Assembly: GCA_035084275.1 (NCBI GenBank)
Contig: CM068747.1
Location: 2,232,001 to 2,296,000 of the forward strand
Direction: 5' to 3'
Origin: Hydrolagus colliei
Taxonomy: Eukaryota
DNA: 64,000 nucleotides
Part shown: positions 40,287 to 50,993 of the stretch, piece by piece
Numbering within the stretch: the stretch's first letter is position 1
How the letters are laid out: every line of letters begins with the position of its first letter
The notes under the pieces: model-generated
What the model was told of the DNA's origin: nothing
Database searches by the model: none
Seen by the model: the letters and a program-made list of their open reading frames with translations, nothing else
Position numbers and translations under genes: made by a program

Positions 40287-40441
40287 GGCCCCGACCACTG
40301 TACTAAATGTTCCAATTACATGGACGGCCCCAACTGTGTGGAGAAATGCCCAGACGGCCTTCAGGGAGCCAGCAGTTTCATTTTCAAGTTTGCTGACTCT
40401 ACAAACGAATGCCATCCTTGCCATTCAAACTGCACCCAGGG
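40287..40441 (+). CDS. ERBB4: ERBB4 exon 15
   Basis: tgtcag|GGCCC...CAGGG|gtaagt; 155 nt; [52 protein letters not shown]. Confidence 0.96.
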
Positions 40442-43400
40442 GTAAGTGATCAATGTACTGAAACGTGCAGAGTGCCCAGTGCAGCCTGTTCGCCTAAGGA
40501 TTGCGGAGGATGATGCAGACATGATTAGGTTTGAAGAATTGGCTAAGGAGAAGGTGAAAACGCTTCTTTTCACACCGTACTTTCACAGTGTCGGCATTTT
40601 TTTTTTGGGGGGGGGTTCTTTAAGGCTGTAATTGAAACGTTTGTCATTGATAAACGTAATTTAATTCCAGTAGGTGTTTGCTACATTAGGAAATGAATTT
40701 GTTTCAAACAAGTGAAAGGCTTCAAATCTGATTGACGGCAAAGACAGAGTAAGTGTTGCTTGGTACATTCATCAAATTAAGTCAATAAATATTAAGTGTG
40801 TTGGCTAATCTTAACAGCTCAAGTCGAGCATTGAAAAATAGACCTCTTTTTGTGTGTTGTATTGCAATTGGGACACTTATGAATGACGGTGAATATCATT
40901 ATGCTGATAGGAGCCGAAACAGATTTAACAGTTGTCTGAAATGTCTCATAACTGGGGTTATACCCATAAACTATATTGTTTTATTGAGCGATAAACACAA
41001 GTAAAAGACTCCATTCCGCCTTGCATTATGATTACGTTTAAATAAAGCAAATAATAAACAAATAAGCAATTTCAGTGACGTTGTTGTGAAGTTTGTAAGT
41101 GTAAACGATGTCCACTGTCAGTGATTGTCAGTGTTTTTTGATTGCCTCCTCCTCCCCTCAAAAGAGTAGTTTGGCGTCCATTCTTCCAACAATGGAGATG
41201 GCTGTGACACTGCTGTTTGCTGTGCTTCATTGCGTACTGGAGCCTGCCTTGCATTTGAAAATTGGGGTGGTGGGGGGTATGGAGAGAGAGAAAAACTTAA
41301 TTATCCAATTCAAAAGAAACCAAAATTGGAAACTTCTCTCCCAGCCGGGACAAAATGTGTGGATAGTGACAATGACTGAAATTGTCCTCTGTATTGAATT
41401 GAACCAGTTTCCCACGGAGCAATCTAGTCTCTTGTTTTGTAACTGTGCTCCAAGACAGGTGCGCCGCGAATAGAATGATAGCGCACAGAAACAGTCCTTT
41501 TGACCGAACTGTGCTGGGTGTTTATACTCCACCAGCCCTCTCTCTTCCTATTCCTATTCGACTCTCCTTTATCCCTCTATTCCTATTGTTCTGCTTTGGA
41601 CCTATGCAATAACATTTCACGTTGAAGCAAACGTGGTCAGTGATCTATTTTCATCGATGAAAAGTTCCCCGCTGAAGATTAAATACACTATCTGGTCCAT
41701 CTGGAAATAGTGTATACTTTATACTGTACATGCGAATGGTGCCTGGTTTCACAACATATACTACATTTGCGTGCAGCAGGTACAGTTCATACAGTGTAAT
41801 GTACCAATCCGCAGTCTCAATGGATGGGTGGGGTGGGGGTTCTCGGACAGGTTCAGTCCTTGAAGCAGCCTGCTGCTGTGCTGTCCATTGCTGTAAGCTC
41901 GTGTAACACCAGATACAGTCTGCTGTAGCGCTGACATTCCCAGCACCTCACTGAAACTTTTGTCAGCTTTTTTTAAAAAAAATTCTCCACTCTGTATGAA
42001 AATCGCAAAGGGCACTGCGTTAAAACACAATTAAATATATATTGAGACCTGCTCCTATCAGGATGTGTTTCAAGTTGACCAGCGACTCCTTGGTCGCTGA
42101 TGTTCCCACAAGACGCCAGGAACCATCCTTGGCCAATAAATTCTGTTGGAGCTGAGTTCTGGCTGGTCAGCATGAGATATGCTCCCGTCTGCCTCTCAGT
42201 CACCAACACCTCGTCGCAAGATATAATAATGGTGAATTCCTTTACAAATCCCGACTACACCAGAGTTTAAAATTCAGGATCCAGATTGTACGAGAGTTAA
42301 AGTTGTTTAGCTACCTAATGCTCCTGACTCAAGAGACTATTTTTCCAGTACTTTTTTCCTAGTCCTTCTCCTTGATTTTTTAAATATTGTTTTCCGTACA
42401 GTTTTCCAAGTACTGAGTAATGCCACCAAAGGAAAACATATAGAATTGTAAACCACAAGGCAATGCTTTTCTTCGCCTTTATACTTCGGTAGCCACATAA
42501 GAGCAAGTGTTTCTTTATAAAACAGAGTTAATTTAACACTTCAGACACTAACGCAACACAAATCACAAAAAAAGCAAACAAACTCGGGGAGGGGGGAAGA
42601 CGGCTTTGACGTTGTCTCAGTCCCTCAATGTGTTCGAACACACCCTACACTGTAGGTTTCATCCGATATGGAGTATTTATAATTAGCTGTTTCCTGTAAC
42701 AGATCTACTCTTTTCCATCTCACTGCTGATGTTTCTTTCTCCTCGGCTATTTTTCTTCATGTATTTTCTGTGATTTTTCTTTCCTTTTCCTCGTCTGCTC
42801 TATATCCCTCACTACCCCTCTACTTTTCATTCTTCCCTTCTCTTTCCCTCACTCGCTCCTGAGAGATCTGTCACCTGGACCTCCCGAGATGACCATGTTG
42901 TCTGCTATGGCAATATGTCAACTCTGTGTTTCTCAGTACTTTTTGGTTTTGACTGTACTTTACGGCCAGTCATTCGTGAAATGAAAGTCCCGCAGACGGC
43001 ACTCGGTTAAGGTCTCCCAAGGGGTGGGCGCAATGGGAAGGGAAAGCCGGCAGAAGAGAGAATCCAACACTTGGTGCCTCGTGTGGATAATTGAAAACCA
43101 ACATCCCCCTGAAAGAGATTGTGTGGGGTTGAAGGCCATCTGCTGGGGAAAACGTGGTGACATAGACGAAGGGGTTGAATGTACTATAGGTTATTAAATC
43201 CAGTTTAAATGTGAGATCTGCTTTGTGTTTCAGGACAGTGAGGTTTTAGAAATTGAAATTGATAAACTGCGAGATCAAACCGAGAGCGGTTCGTCAGTTC
43301 TATATCCCATTTCTGAAATACGCAGCATCCAGAGGGGAGAGGTTTTTCTTTGCCCATGCGGTGGGAGTCACGACAGCACAATGACAAAAAGATAGATAGT

Positions 43401-43975
43401 CCCACAATCAAATGACAAGATTTGATGAGCAATCCTGGTTATCTAATAATGCGCTGTCCAGGGATCCATCACTCACTGATCAGTAGACTACTACTTGCAG
43501 TCTTTTCATTGTGTGTTATAATGGGATTTCCCCATTCGAAAGCCACACTGAAAAAGAGCAAACTCCTAGATGATTGGCATGCAGCACAGCCCCACTCCAT
43601 GTAGTTTAAGTAAATGCCGTCCTGAAGATTGTTATATAATACAGAACTGGTAACTGGTGAATTCATAAACTATATCCATTCTTCGTAATCACTGGTTCAT
43701 TCCATACAGATCACATTGTCATTGTTCCTGCTTTGGCACACTGTCAAAACACTTTATTTGTTAAGTCTATAATTTTTTTTTGAACACACGAGATTTGGGG
43801 TTTTCAAGTGCACTGGCAGATTCCCAGGAAGGTAAAATGCCATCCGTCCAAAGCTATAATTTAACCATTGTTGAGTGTGATATGGTAACGTTTTAAAGAT
43901 TATAATTACTCTGTTAACATGAAGATTTTTGTTTTTTCCCCCTGAATAACGGCATTCAACTTTCCTGTGCTGCAG

Positions 43976-44020
43976 GTGCATAGGGCCACATACACAGGAC
44001 TGCACCGGGATGATGGATAG
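43976..44020 (+). CDS. ERBB4: ERBB4 JM-b cassette exon (non-cleavable juxtamembrane isoform)
   Basis: ctgcag|GTGCA...GATAG|gtacta; 45 nt, phase 2-2; CIGPHTQDCTGMMD(R) versus mammalian JM-b CIGSSIEDCIGLMD(R). Confidence 0.93.
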   Translation: MHRATYTGLHRDDG

Positions 44021-44041
44021 GTACTATTGTGTGCTGGCTGC

Positions 44042-44047
44042 TGCATG
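44042..44047 (+). promoter_or_regulatory. TGCATG RBFOX-binding motif in the 83-nt intron between JM-b and the JM-a remnant
   Basis: Exact TGCATG 21 nt downstream of the JM-b donor; function is inferred from position only. Confidence 0.5.
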
Positions 44048-44103
44048 CTGCGCTGTGTGAATGTTGGTGAAAATGGGTGATATTATGCTCTAATTGTGTA
44101 CAG

Positions 44104-44181
44104 GTGTACACAGGCTCCACTCTCCATAACCGCATTATCTGTCCACGGATGGCTCTCTCCCAACTTTCCACAGCGCGCTGG
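44104..44181 (+). pseudogene. ERBB4: Degenerate ERBB4 JM-a exon (pseudoexon or possible terminal exon)
   Basis: Acceptor gtgtacag|GTGT. Removing a 2-nt and a 1-nt insertion gives CTGSTLHNRIICPRMALSQLPQRAG, colinear with mammalian JM-a [25 protein letters not shown]. It ends GCTGG|ataaca, with no GT donor. Confidence 0.82.
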
Positions 44182-47100
44182 ATAACACCCAACCGCATTT
44201 CCATTCTGTTCCACTCTTTCCCACCCGCACTCACGTTGCGTGAAATTATTTAAAATGAAGCGATGGATAAATAATGCAAATGGGAGCCTTTCGATGATGA
44301 CTCCTATTAAATCATCAAATTAACCTACTAATCAGCCCGCCGTAAAAATGAGGTTTTGATGAGGACTTATCAATGAAATGAGCTCCACTTTCGCGGCTTG
44401 TTCTATTTCTGTTTGCTCGTGTTTCTTTATCAGTCGAGGATGCTTTTCCAATAGAATCTGAAGTGTTTTGCTAATTGCCCTGGGTTACCCGCAGGGGCCT
44501 GGTCTCTTAGCCCAAAGTTTGAGATTTCCATAAACACATCTGGCTCAATGTAAGCAGAGGTCTGGCATTTACCAGGTGACATTTCTGTTGGGATAATAAA
44601 TAAGGTCTTTTGAAATCACAGCTTTCTTTAATTACCTGTGTCACATCCCAGTACTTCCACCAGCTTCCTGACCTTTTCTTTTCCAGACCATGCAAATTCC
44701 ACGATTGAATTAACACTTGTTTTCATTGCAAGGGAAATAAAGCATCCGAGACCAAATTGATACTGCCTTAATATGTGTTGGGTCAACAGTCCCATGGTGA
44801 TAGATAGACAGAGAGGCAGAGAACAGATCTGACTGATTGCTTTGCTCACTGAATTTTGCTGCCGATGCAATTCTCTGACACTGATGCAGATATGACAAAG
44901 AAAATTGATTTTAATTCAGTCAAACAGCTTTCCACAGATTGATGATATTTTGCAGCAGAAAATATGTTTCCGTATGGTATGAAACGCTGCAAGGAATCCT
45001 TTCAGTGACACTAAAGAGTTGGTTGTGTTTAATCAATCCGACATTGGTGGTGGGTGAGGGGCTGGGGGTTGATGATGTGATCCTAATCTGCATATTACTT
45101 CCACTGCCAATTTGTCCCCAGTTAAAGCTGGATCTTTCACGGCTCTTTCCTTTGGCTCAGGTCCAACCTTGTCCATCATGGAAAAGCATTTTTTTCCCCC
45201 AAGTAAACCATGCATTAGATTTTATGCTGAAACACAGCAAACAATGAGTTTCAAGCAGGAGCTCAACCTTGGGGGGGGAGTGGGGGGGCGTTCTGCATGG
45301 TTTGCGTGTCCGCTCAGTTCTCTACACTTGCCCTTTAGGACACTGTCAGAAGTGCTTGATTACCTAGCAGCTCATCGCCGGACACCTATCTATATTTCTA
45401 ATTCTTTTGATATTTTAATATTGACCTTCAGAGGGAAGCCTTTGTTTATTCTATGCTAATTATTCGCACATATCAATAATCCGATCCTCCCTCTGAGCCT
45501 CTCAAGCCTCCACTTAGTGTGAGATGCTTTCCGATGTGGTCCTTTTTTCATAGCCACCTTCAATGTTTCAGCATGATCAGACAGAACCCCCCTCCTCACA
45601 GTAAGCAAGCCCCCCCACCAGTGATTGCTTCCCTATTGAACCAGAGCATCCATATCCCACTGCGGTGAAGAGCTCCCTCTTACACAAGCCCATTCAACAA
45701 TAACAAGTACCTCAGATAGAAACGGAAATTGCTGGGAAGCGCACAGCTCGTCAACCAGCAAGTGTGGGTTAATCTTTTACATGTGACCCAGATGACAGGT
45801 TAATCTATCTTCCACTTTCCGCTGCTGATCAGCCTGAAATGCATTACGGTCATTTTCTGTTTTATATTAAATTTCTAACACTCAGTATTTATCCTTTATG
45901 TTCAGTGTGGGGAAGAGTCCTGGGCAAACGCTGGGATCAAACGCTCTCTTTATTTATTCATTTCTATTGGTACCATTTGACATTTGTCAGGCCCAATATC
46001 CAATTTTAAACTCTGCGTTTCTCTATCTTTCCATTAATTTATTCTATTTATTGCCCGACCCAGAATAAATTCTGTGAAATGCCTCGAGACATCTTGACAA
46101 AGTGAGAAGCCACTGTATTTAAATGCAAGGATTATGATTTATTGTACACCCAGTTTCAAATGACTTCCAACATGGTCAGTTGGCTTGGCTGCTGACAAGG
46201 ATTGCAATATTTTGCTTGATTTGCACTTCAATGAAGGAATCCGGAACAGGATAGTGGGATTTATAATCTTGCGTCCGTGTTTCTCAGAGACTCTGTACCT
46301 GAATTCATGCGCAGACCAACATTATGCGACATTAATTTTCTAATGTTATTCAAACGTTAGATGTAGTAACATTGAAAACAGACCCTCAAAAAATTCCTGG
46401 GACCTTCCGAGAAGAGATAATTATTCAGTGGGCGACTAAATCAATCTGCTTTGGCCTTGTTTATTATGAAGTGATGAGAATCAGACGCCAAACCTGCCTC
46501 TGAAAGCCAAGTCGTGCCAGTGTGAATTGCTTTGGTTTTGTGCTTCATACAGCTGACTGATAAACTCATATTAGCAATATTAACTGGTCGTACAATTCTA
46601 ATTTATATTTAGGTCTGGGGAGCTCTAATCTGGGACTGAGCACTTAAAAAAAAAAGTTGCTTTTAAGAAGTTATGCATCTTGTCTTGTTGGCATCTGGAA
46701 GCAGATCAGCTGTGCTTGGAGGAGAAAAATCTGTCCATGATGCAGTAAGAATGAACAGGACTATAGCAACTTATCTCCTCCGGAAACCCCTCACAAAGTT
46801 AATCCTTGTTTATTCGTTAGAAACCTACTTTGTTTTTTACAGCTGTTGATGAAACTTTTAATGAAACAGAGAACATAGAACTCAATAGGCCAGTTGTACA
46901 CTACTATTATTATTCACTCACTTCCTATATGATTGGCTGACGCGTTTCGCCCTCAAAAATACACTTTATATTGTGCTTTATATTCTGTAAAGCACTTTGG
47001 GATGTCTCCGCGAGATGATAAGATGCTGCATTAAATTGCAAAGCTGATTGTATTTATCTGGGCGCTAAACAGTTCAACGTGGATAGGAAGGGTCTCAACT

Positions 47101-50100
47101 ATAACACCCAAATTGTGTTGGGATGGTTCGCTAAATTGTTACTTTAGGCAATTCTGGTAGGGAGCTTGTTTCATCATAACGCCAGAGCAGTGTCTATTAG
47201 AGCCTTATTGTTGGGCTAATCATTGTGAGTTGTTTGAAGTTTCACAGAAACAAGAATAATTCATCTGTGCGGCATGGGAAAGTAGCTCAGTTGGTCAGAA
47301 CTGAAAAAGTGCACCAAATCTACAGTCAATTCACTTCACCGTATATTCGGTGAAGCTCATTGAGACGTCTCGAAGACATGAAAAGGCGCTACATCAAATG
47401 CAAGGGTTAATATATGAAGCATGCAGAGCATATGGGAATCCCATGTATGTTGATTAAATTAATTGTTTCCCATGTCCCATAGCAGCTGAGATGGGATATT
47501 TTATTAATTTTATACATTGATACAATTTAATAATATCCAGTCATAAACTCATAATATAAACCACGGCTGTCCAACTGGTGGGGCGGGCGGGGGGGGAATC
47601 TAAATCTCTTTTGTTCCATTTTTTAAAATATGATTTGAATTATATATTCAGTGTATCTTGATTTTGTCCCTTTGTTGGTTTTGCAATTATGGATTAATCT
47701 ATTTGGGGTTTTTTTAAGCACTCTCTATAGGGCTTCCATAAGTTGAATAGTCTACGGGAGGTCTTTAATACATAAACATTAACTTGATGCCTATATTATT
47801 TCCATTTGAGATTATCTTTCCTTTGTTACTTGTTAGGGCAATTCAATTGTTTTATTTGAATTCACTCAATTATTTCTGTCACTTTCATTGTTTGCCCGTG
47901 GTTCAATGATTGCTCTTGTAGATATATCTTCTTTATTGACGAGTGATTTATGGGTTTAAAATGTGTATACATTTTTACATCGTCCATTTAAAGTTTGCAT
48001 TGTACCTAAAATGTAATGAAATTAAGCAATGCAGTTATACAATTTAAAAACATAGGATTTCTATGTGATTCTTAGGGGATATGTTTCCCAGAAGGGGAAT
48101 ATTCAAAAATATTGCGTATGTTCCTTGTGGACTTTTACTCAAATCCAGCAGTCACATTGTTGGACTATCCTGAGGTAAACTGTGGCCAGCACTTTGTGAG
48201 ACTGGTATCTTGAATTTACACCATGACTATATTATATTGCTAGATGGGCTCTGGAATTGGATTTACCATCCAACATGAGAGGCTTTCCAGCTAGGCTGTG
48301 GGTAGCCGACACGCTGCATTAGTAGAGTAACTCAAGGGTGGAACTTTACCCCACAAATGTTGACCTTTCTACCTAAAGCAGCACGCGATAGAATGTGATG
48401 TTCACTCACTCCCTTCTTCCCTCCCTCTTCTCGTTCGAGACATCCCTGATAATGTAACTCGTTTCACCAAGCTTTCAGGCATTACTTTCCCCCATTGCTC
48501 TGTGCTCGGCTCCCACCCCCAGTTTGGTTGCCTGTCCAGTTTTGTCGAGCGCTTTGTCAAATGTTCACCCAGTGGGGGAAAGGTGGTGTCCGTAGGCACG
48601 GTTGAATTGGAAGGTCTGAAGATGGGGGAAAGGAAGGGGCAAAGGCGGAGGGATAGAGGACGAATGTACTCTTACGCTCTAGCTTCGGGGGTTTCGGGGC
48701 ACAGTGGCTGAAGGAACATAAAAGAGCCTCTTGTCAAGCTTCAGTATTTATGAGACTCCCTGTCGATAATGCATCAGTCTGACATTCTGGAAAAGACACC
48801 CTATGAGCAGGCCAGTCTGTCTTCTGTTTGAAGACAAGTATGTTTGTGAGTTTCCCTCTTTTCTCGTGAATCTTACTGTTTCTCTGGAGATTTGACAATT
48901 CTGTGTGCATTGTGAGAGGGGAGGGAAACAAAAAGTTCTAGCCGTGCCACAAAATATACAACGTTACGCAGCTAATTGTAGGAAATAGTTTATAAACACC
49001 TAGGTATGTACGGCTGGGAAATTGTCGGCAAATACAAATGAGTTTAGCATAAGAAGTTTTTAACATATAGATTAACGGAAAGAACTTTTCGGAAACTGAC
49101 ACGGGCTGACCTCTAGTGGCTCATCAAATCAAAATGCCGCAAAGCATTTCACACGTCGAGCGTATTGACCATTTGTTTTGGTAGGCAGGTTCAGCAATCA
49201 TTTGTGCCTGCGAGATTCAACAAGTAGCCAAAATAAAATGGTTCATTTAATTTCATTGCTTATTGTGGGGCATTGGGGTGCTCAAATTGGGTGTTACACT
49301 TGCTCACAAATAGTCACTGTGCTTCACAGTAAAATCCCGTAAAGGACATTGAGACATCTCAGCAATGTCTCGGTAAGGGAAGGATTATTATTATTATATG
49401 AGGTGACAGTTAACATGAAAGACTATTGGCCAGGACTTTGCTATGAGAGGGTATCAACCCCACATACCAGACCACCACACTCCATCATTTAAATTTGCTT
49501 TCCACACACACACACACATTTTTCCTCTTCTCTCTTTCTTCTCTGTTCAATGCAGGATGGGCTGTAATTACTTTTCTATATCAGTACAAAGGAAATAGTA
49601 AATGCTACTTATTTCTTATCATATTTTTTAATCCATTTGCAAAGGAGACGCTTTGAGCTGAAAGGCGATGCCTTCCAAATTATTAATAAAAGTAGTTTGA
49701 ATTGCAAAAGATTAATTAGGCTTTGGTTCTGATTCCCTTTAAATCACCTTTCCTTTGTAAAGTTTGATGCTGCCTGCAATCTCTGCTTTGCTCTTTTGTT
49801 TGAATCTGAATGCGTTAATTTTCACCCCCCCCCCCACCCCTCCCCCCCCCCCCCAAGTAATAGAATCATATTCAAGTGATGAATAGTTCTAATTGAAAAC
49901 AAGGAGTCTGATTAGCTTGAATTTGTGAGCTGTGACTGGGATTTGTATGAGTGAAGTGAGTCCGTTCCTGATACAGTACAAGACCAACTTGCACGAGCTT
50001 GGACCCATCTGCTAACTCCAGTCGCTCGAGTCACTTTTATAATACGTTTATTAAGAATCTTTCATATCGGTTGGACACCTCCAAATCTTTAACAATAACC

Positions 50101-50860
50101 CAGCAGTGGGTGGGAGCTGTCGGCAAAGGGGTAACCCTTAAAAAGAGATCAAGCATTTCTTACAAGAACAGTCAGATAGGAATACTGTTTGTGGTTTCTC
50201 TTTTGCTTCCTTTGCTGATGGTTAAAAGACCTGTTTGGTTGTATTGATGCAGATGGTTGTAATCTTGAAACAAACCCAATGTTTCCCTCTAGTTTCCCTC
50301 CAGTTTTCCTCTTTGATCCCCAAGGATCAAAACACCAACCTGGAAACTTGGAAATCAAAGTTTCAATGCCTTCAGTTCTTCTTCTTTGTTTCTTTAACGA
50401 GAGAGGGGGGAGAGAGAAGAAGCAAAGCCTTTCAGCGAGGAAGCAAAAGCCGCATGGTTCATTCATCCATGATTAACAATTGAGGCAGCCAGTAGCCTTT
50501 CATAATAAATTTAATTAAAAAGTCTACAGCTAGAGCAACAGACTTTTTTGTCTGATTTTTCAGTCCTATGCAAACCTATTTTTAACACTATGATCAATGC
50601 ATCGCACAGTCTCTGTAACTATTAAGCCGTTTTTAATGGTTTATAATACAGTGTTGAGCCATGCAAACAAGATTGATTTCAACACACATTGGCGCTTTTT
50701 TTCCTTCCTTGCAATTTTATTCCAATGTTTTCTTTCATAGGGGTGTGATTGAATGAGAATGGCTGGATGTGCTTTCAATTTTTTTCAATGTATTTGAACC
50801 GTCTTTTCAGTTGTTTTCTGTTACCCAGTTTTGCATCCAAAGTCTCATTACGATTTCCAG

Positions 50861-50993
50861 GACTCCGCTGATTGCCGCTGGGGTGATCGGCGGCCTCTTC
50901 ATTATGGTGATTATGGCTCTGGTGTTTGCCGTGTACGTCAGGAGAAAGAGCATCAGGAAGAAGCGAGCGTTGAGACGATTTCTGGAAACCGAG
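50861..50993 (+). CDS. ERBB4: ERBB4 exon 17 (transmembrane helix and basic juxtamembrane/NLS segment)
   Basis: tttccag|GACTC...CCGAG|gtatag; 133 nt; [44 protein letters not shown]. Confidence 0.97.

Follow-up and report, generated by a model that had tools for sequence, protein, structure and literature searches.

The question raised by this locus is whether the chimaera Hydrolagus colliei can still produce the cleavable form of the receptor ERBB4. According to the available text of three reports, the juxtamembrane cassette JM-a holds the site cut by ADAM17 and JM-b escapes cleavage (PMC9568506, PMC9663514, PMC11060329), and in two of them ADAM17 shedding followed by gamma-secretase release is presented as the defining feature of JM-a (PMC9568506, PMC9663514). 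The juxtamembrane isoforms also differ in STAT5a vs. STAT5b activation in a cleavage-independent manner (available text of PMC9663514), so that a loss of JM-a would remove more than shedding. An earlier note on the stretch of 64,000 nucleotides analyzed here (the window) had proposed that a decayed JM-a exon lies behind an intact JM-b exon, that the JM-a/JM-b pair was ancestral and that this lineage retained only JM-b.

ERBB4 was represented in the window by 17 consecutive coding exons (9236-57954), each bounded by AG and GT, encoding 678 residues free of stops, 665 of which were identical to Callorhinchus milii ERBB4. The top solved-structure match of exon 40287-40441 was human ERBB4. The features of the juxtamembrane part are given below; X numbers denote runs from which contigs were available.

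40287-40441, + strand: ERBB4 coding exon (end of domain IV) 5' of the juxtamembrane cassette, with GT donor; 51 of 52 residues as in C. milii
43976-44020, + strand: JM-b exon, intact, 45 nt, 15 residues, both Cys present, AG/GT (from the sequence and the relatives' contigs)
44021-44103, + strand: intron between JM-b and the JM-a remnant, 83 nt, closing AG acceptor intact at 44102-44103
44104-44181, + strand: decayed JM-a exon (pseudoexon), 78 nt here and 76 nt in the relatives X6 and X9 (from the C. milii alignment and the relatives' contigs)
44108-44112, + strand: AC-repeat stretch with a 2-nt insertion, present in organism A (this species) and missing from X6 and X9
44131-44133, + strand: position of the second Cys; CGC, an Arg codon, here and in X9, and a His codon in X6
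44146-44148, + strand: position of the conserved Trp; CGG (Arg), the same in X1, X5, X6, X9, and X11
44155-44161, + strand: C/T run with a 1-nt insertion, the same in X1, X5, X6, X9, and X11
44182-44185, + strand: dead donor, AT for GT, then an in-frame stop (44183-44185), the same in X1, X5, X6, X9, and X11
50861-50993, + strand: transmembrane exon with intact basic nuclear-localisation stretch (from the sequence and comparison with C. milii)

All sequence features listed in the earlier note (acceptor, Cys, Trp, Leu-Ser, and AT donor) were present, the Leu-Ser pair of the His-Ser region being encoded at 44155-44160, and the basic stretch behind the transmembrane helix was unbroken, as had been stated. 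The C. milii JM-a peptide was aligned, allowing for frameshifts, over the whole of 40442-50860, the 10.4 kb between the flanking exons. Its best site was 44105-44182 (score 52; no other site exceeded 20 on the + strand or 21 on the - strand), where it aligned end to end with 15 of 25 residues identical, and none of 400 dinucleotide shuffles reached this score (mean 8.0, maximum 40). No intact JM-a was found elsewhere in 40442-50860 by this sensitive alignment. The mouse peptide (P0158) shared 11 of 25 residues with the remnant. Scores of the bony-vertebrate peptides were reached by 12 (mouse), 15 (reedfish), 18 (bird), 41 (skink), and 88 (sturgeon) of 400 shuffles. When aligned at the remnant, six of six JM-a peptides started at 44105 and five of the six ended at 44182; over the whole intron, none of seven bony-vertebrate peptides placed the remnant as its best site. 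The mammalian alignment alone is thus insufficient proof, as the signal from bony vertebrates is weak: of the codon-for-codon match with mammalian JM-a that had been described, the common start stood, and the match itself was marginal against shuffled sequence. The segment lies between the JM-b and transmembrane exons, in phase 1 and behind an AG acceptor. What remains of the ERBB4 JM-a exon thus lies at 44104-44181, orthologous by position, phase and sequence, as had been claimed.

The remnant lacks a canonical donor (AT at 44182-44183), and it lacks an open ancestral frame with both Cys, since the middle is shifted and the second Cys is gone. In organism A the insertions of 2 and 1 nt add to 3, which leaves the exon 78 nt long and open over 26 codons, with a shifted middle frame and a stop directly after; the last residues return to the ancestral frame. 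The extra base was placed in 44155-44161, most simply in the C run 44159-44161, because the Asn-Phe of C. milii is retained behind the run; this corrects its assignment to a later T. Both insertions reported as lesions are therefore present, but they cancel in organism A, and the 2-nt one is absent from relatives. The His-to-Leu change, also counted as a lesion, is present but is weak evidence of inactivation, as mutation of His641-Ser642 in mice left cleavage going on in vivo and the mouse data indicate possible cleavage at alternative sites (available text of PMC9568506).

The state of the exon in other samples was read from contigs, not raw reads, and five of the eight runs examined, out of 12 with matching sequence, covered it (X1, X5, X6, X9, and X11); X10 and X12 had no contig on the stretch and in X7 the exon was uncovered. 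X1 and X5 (depth 24.6 and 49.5) both belong to organism A and come from separate samples in separate studies; neither differed from the window over 44104-44183, both insertions and A44182 included, and the window may derive from one of the two. X6 (organism B, depth 28.6) showed seven substitutions and three indels in 431 nt with respect to the window; the 2-nt insertion was missing, the Cys position was a His codon and 44174-44176 encoded the ancestral His, and the 1-nt insertion, the altered Trp and the AT site were all present. The 2-nt insertion was missing from X9 (depth 4.6) too, which had its own changes at 44137 and 44149 with respect to the window. The change at 44137 was common to X9 and X11 (depth 3.4), whose contig begins at 44110, so that the 2-nt insertion was uncovered and its near-end Cys codon was unusable. 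Donor loss and the frameshifting 1-nt insertion were thus common to three related sequence types, and the 2-nt slip in the AC repeat was confined to organism A among the types covering 44108-44112. Accordingly, the comparison across relatives that had been suggested supported the AT site and the 1-nt insertion in X6, X9, and X11, but not the 2-nt insertion, absent from X6 and X9. Since the AT donor and the 1-nt insertion are shared and the 2-nt insertion is not, inactivation probably came first and restoration of the frame later; X6 and X9 have the AT site in a frameshifted exon of 76 nt, so that the donor loss predates the recovered frame. The 2-nt insertion looks like a late accidental frame rescue.

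Release from constraint at the protein level was apparent. Among the relatives, five events occurred in the 78 nt of the exon vs. seven in 247 nt of flanking intron (P = 0.17), so that, within these small numbers, the exon was not more conserved than the intron, and all four substitutions separating the relatives within it change a residue in the ancestral frame. With respect to C. milii, 10 of 25 residues of the remnant differed, vs. 13 of 678 in the 17 other exons (Fisher P = 4e-10). The lineage of the window presented seven derived residues of 25 in JM-a, compared with no more than 8 of 480 ectodomain residues, together with two insertions and the loss of the donor; polarity of the JM-a residues was judged by eye from aligned peptides. 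As a separate observation, when the window, X6, and X9 were compared, the 83 nt of intron 44021-44103 held a single indel and no substitution; these numbers are small but lower than in the remnant, and they possibly reflect splicing signals of JM-b.

All 17 real donors of the gene are GT, scoring 4.2-11.2, vs. -6.9 for the AT site, with a matrix made from the same 17 sites and thus scored on its own training set. Several alternatives for splicing of the remnant were considered and rejected. An acceptor at 44114 runs into a stop after four codons, and cryptic GT donors within 44110-44420 give no in-frame open exon in the window's species; in relatives that have no 2-nt insertion, those at 44207 and 44234 would fall in frame, yet they score -6.2 and -3.3 in the window's sequence. 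A U12-type AT donor agrees with only four of eight letters of the consensus, and a U12-type branch motif was not found near 50861. An A-to-I-edited donor at A44182 was rejected for want of an extended duplex: this base was mostly unpaired (pairing probability 0.25-0.30), and it lay outside the longest 25 of the 95 inverted repeats in 42000-46500. Intron positions 44050-44070 and the 3' part of the remnant (44156-44176) form an inverted repeat of 21 nt (71% complementary), and pairing probability reached 0.89-1.0 at 44176-44178, with a folding z for the region of only -1.6.

A protein of a close relative, P0127, is a frame of 1325 residues on a Logan contig of 4,405 nt, which we infer to be a spliced transcript. 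It was identical to the window protein at 675 of 678 residues (665 for C. milii); at the 13 residues where window and C. milii differ, it agreed with the window in 10. P0127 carries JM-b, joined directly to the upstream and transmembrane exons; a single contig reports the dominant path only. The claim that the lineage retained only JM-b is hence borne out as regards the use of JM-b in a close relative's transcript-derived protein, a minor JM-a path being beyond the reach of one contig.

Spare copies were also sought. The region 43900-44300 is single copy in the genome. A genome-wide search with C. milii JM-a and its flanks revealed no spare JM-a, a weak negative given that it missed the remnant itself, and yielded two weak matches (L002 and L003, E 0.67 and 3.7), of which L002 lies about 11 kb from an EGFR-like exon (L006). 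A second ERBB4 was not found within the limited sensitivity of the search, the other two matches of the upstream exon looking like ERBB3 and EGFR (L005 and L006, on C39 and C2 of assembly G000). No ERBB2-like exon appeared at E 0.01 among 10 candidates scored, probably owing to sensitivity.

For the distribution of JM-a across vertebrates, stored proteins were sorted by their given names, leaving out 11 unnamed or unrelated rows and keeping unresolved ones in the totals; the survey drew partly on the best 120 of 502 matches and on annotations, so that zeros are weak. Among the matches listed, JM-a (alone or behind JM-b) was present in 6 of 9 bichir and reedfish records, 12 of 22 of sturgeon and paddlefish, 1 of 4 of gar, 5 of 16 of amphibians, 8 of 20 of amniotes (including one skink record), and 4 of 7 of C. 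milii. Conversely, again among the matches listed, it was found in none of 106 teleost records (95 resolvable), 11 shark and ray records (six genera, one shark), 8 of coelacanth, 2 of lungfish, and 4 of bowfin. Two targeted protein searches for JM-a among cluster representatives, in which 6 of 140 and 12 of 16 candidates passed, gave no JM-a from sharks, rays or teleosts; three Esox matches were rejected as run-ons of JM-b. A scan of metagenome contigs for the JM-b motif returned six loci and none from cartilaginous fish. Three were teleost-type exons (L008, L009, and L011) with no trace of JM-a within about 800 nt behind JM-b, and three (L007, L010, and L012) were rejected as chance motif matches without splice context, which look like the antisense of a bacterial membrane-protein gene. 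JM-b followed by JM-a, the JM-d form, occurred in records P0081, P0097, P0142, and P0144 (paddlefish, Xenopus, gar, and bichir). Frog JM-a was shortened to 22 residues (P0064 and P0097), and two short unrelated proteins in the reedfish ERBB4 cluster (P0179 and P0187) were a clustering artefact.

JM-a normally matches the remaining ectodomain in its conservation, as between sturgeon and mouse (21 of 25 residues; ectodomain 81%). C. milii JM-a, in contrast, shared only 12 of 25 residues with sturgeon vs. 81% for the ectodomain. It is known from UniRef gene models only (4 of 7 records; P0002, A0A4W3JAC4), one model being three residues short, and the single RefSeq record of the species carries JM-b. 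The records of C. milii, bichir, sturgeon, paddlefish, gar, amphibians, and amniotes favor the proposal that the JM-a/JM-b pair was ancestral, and JM-a likely goes back to the ancestor of jawed vertebrates.

Among the rival explanations, chance likeness of an intronic sequence to JM-a has a negligible probability. Bony-vertebrate peptides taken alone would leave some room for it, being marginal or non-significant against shuffles, but C. milii JM-a exceeded every shuffle and chose this site in 10.4 kb, both ends of the alignment fell at the expected splice positions, and the order JM-b then JM-a is the one implied by the JM-d records of gar, bichir, paddlefish, and Xenopus. Nor is it at all credible, although slightly less remote than chance, that the lesions are sequencing or assembly errors or the private allele of one animal. 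X1 or X5 may be the source of the assembly, but two samples from two studies agree with the window, organism B, X9, and X11 carry the donor loss and the 1-nt insertion, and all 17 neighboring exons are clean; the AT donor and the 1-nt insertion, found in two samples of the species and in three runs of relatives, are thus not assembly errors, in line with the argument made from several lesions beside clean exons. Residual splicing in organism A, through the AT site or A-to-I editing and giving a new stalk of 26 residues, we consider very improbable. The exon is open and phase-preserving at 78 nt, its acceptor is intact and its final residues are back in the ancestral frame; against this stand the AT site with a frameshifted 76-nt exon in X6 and X9, the poor U12 agreement, and the mostly unpaired A44182 outside any of the longest inverted repeats. 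In a normal receptor, the last disulfide of domain IV forms between a Cys of the upstream exon and the second Cys of the cassette; a product of the spliced remnant, without the latter, would therefore have an unpaired Cys.

The alternative that deserves most weight concerns timing: JM-a may have been non-working earlier, in all holocephalans or in all cartilaginous fishes, with later decay here and a C. milii frame that is merely open. In C. milii, 3 of 25 JM-a residues are derived, compared with no more than 5 of 480 ectodomain residues (P = 0.005), which together with the JM-b RefSeq record, the 0 of 11 among the shark and ray records listed (six genera) and the lack of elasmobranch JM-a among cluster representatives in both targeted searches speaks for such an early loss. 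However, the frame of C. milii JM-a is open over 25 codons and its two Cys, Trp and terminal Arg are retained, suggesting constraint; seven derived residues, two insertions and the donor loss have accumulated in the lineage of the window; and absence from annotations is weak, with one shark among the 11 records. We regard the early loss as rather unlikely, though far from negligible. Constraint on JM-a may have been relaxed before the exon finally broke, and its function may have been lost earlier than the split from Callorhinchus. Crown holocephalans are dated at 173 Ma from morphology and the split of two deep-water families at about 201 Ma from DNA (available text of PMC11521621), dates which bound the loss only loosely.

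The reading we prefer, with a probability of roughly 0.87, is that the JM-a cassette is broken and that JM-b is likely the only cassette spliced in this chimaera lineage, whose receptor would thus undergo no ADAM17 shedding of the JM-a type and send no signal to the nucleus through its tail. The cassette, orthologous to JM-a, carries a donor loss, a 1-nt insertion and Cys and Trp changes common to three related sequence types. With no donor the exon would be left undefined and skipped, and read-through would meet a stop at once; the transcript-derived protein of the close relative, which links the upstream exon, JM-b and the transmembrane exon, agrees in part with this outcome. The JM-b stalk of 15 residues would, by analogy with mammals, be unshed, and no nuclear fragment would be expected in spite of the intact basic stretch. 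As to history, JM-a would have been present in the ancestor of jawed vertebrates and already fast-evolving in holocephalans, and would have been inactivated after the split from Callorhinchus, independently of the teleost loss.

A working JM-a exon (exon 16a in the available text of PMC9568506), as in mouse and C. milii, sits in the same place behind JM-b, with a phase-1 start on a Cys codon; the remnant differs in having no GT donor and one or two insertions, in having lost the second Cys and the Trp, and in being predicted unspliced. Teleosts were reported to have the short form only, and the long form was proposed as an added tetrapod function (Stein and Staros 2006, PMC1618406, available text). 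Teleost erbb4 thus resembles the chimaera state as a vertebrate lineage with JM-b only, but the remnant is still legible here, a molecular fossil no longer visible in the three teleost-type loci. JM-a in bichir, sturgeon, paddlefish, gar, and C. milii points to loss instead of tetrapod gain, and the published reading would give way to one in which the ancestor already had JM-a and its descendants lost it repeatedly. Viability is retained in JM-a-null mice, whose heart, mammary glands and ganglia are normal and whose GFAP regulation is changed (Doherty et al. 2022, PMC9568506, available text). That allele is a one-base frameshift in JM-a with JM-b untouched, to which the natural lesion would be equivalent; it is, however, engineered and works via a premature stop and mRNA decay, whereas the chimaera state adds donor loss and extends over several lineages. 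The chimaera would be its natural counterpart. The surprise first attached to the loss was overstated, given that the teleost absence was published in 2006 and that the null mice are viable.

From the comparisons made, an independent and apparently unreported loss of a dispensable isoform in the chimaera lineage is well-supported. A literature search outside supplements found nothing on JM-a in cartilaginous fishes (the supplement of PMC9663514 may include fish juxtamembrane sequences), and the available text of PMC6589560, PMC4898815, and bioRxiv 2022.10.05.510958 holds nothing on fish juxtamembrane isoforms. Ancestral presence with two independent losses, taken alone, is highly probable. The broader proposal, that cleavable ERBB4 is an ancestral jawed-vertebrate trait lost at least three times (in teleosts, the chimaera lineage, and sharks and rays), perhaps also in coelacanth, lungfish, and bowfin, falls a little short of even odds. 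If at least three losses did occur, direct nuclear ERBB4 signalling would be absent from over half of vertebrate species, and these would serve as natural knockouts for the only role proven for it, that of setting when astrocytes form. Callorhinchus, whose JM-a is open, and the window's lineage, which has no such exon, would form a close pair for the study of ERBB4 shedding function in fish. No new mechanism is involved, as cassette exons commonly decay and mice are viable without JM-a.

The JM-b exon itself presented a minor difference. A43990 gives His as its fifth residue in organism A, where Arg stands in X6, X9, P0127, and C. milii; His is found at this place in Narcine records as well. 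This residue falls inside or near the region 627-632 linked to STAT5 choice in the available text of PMC9663514.
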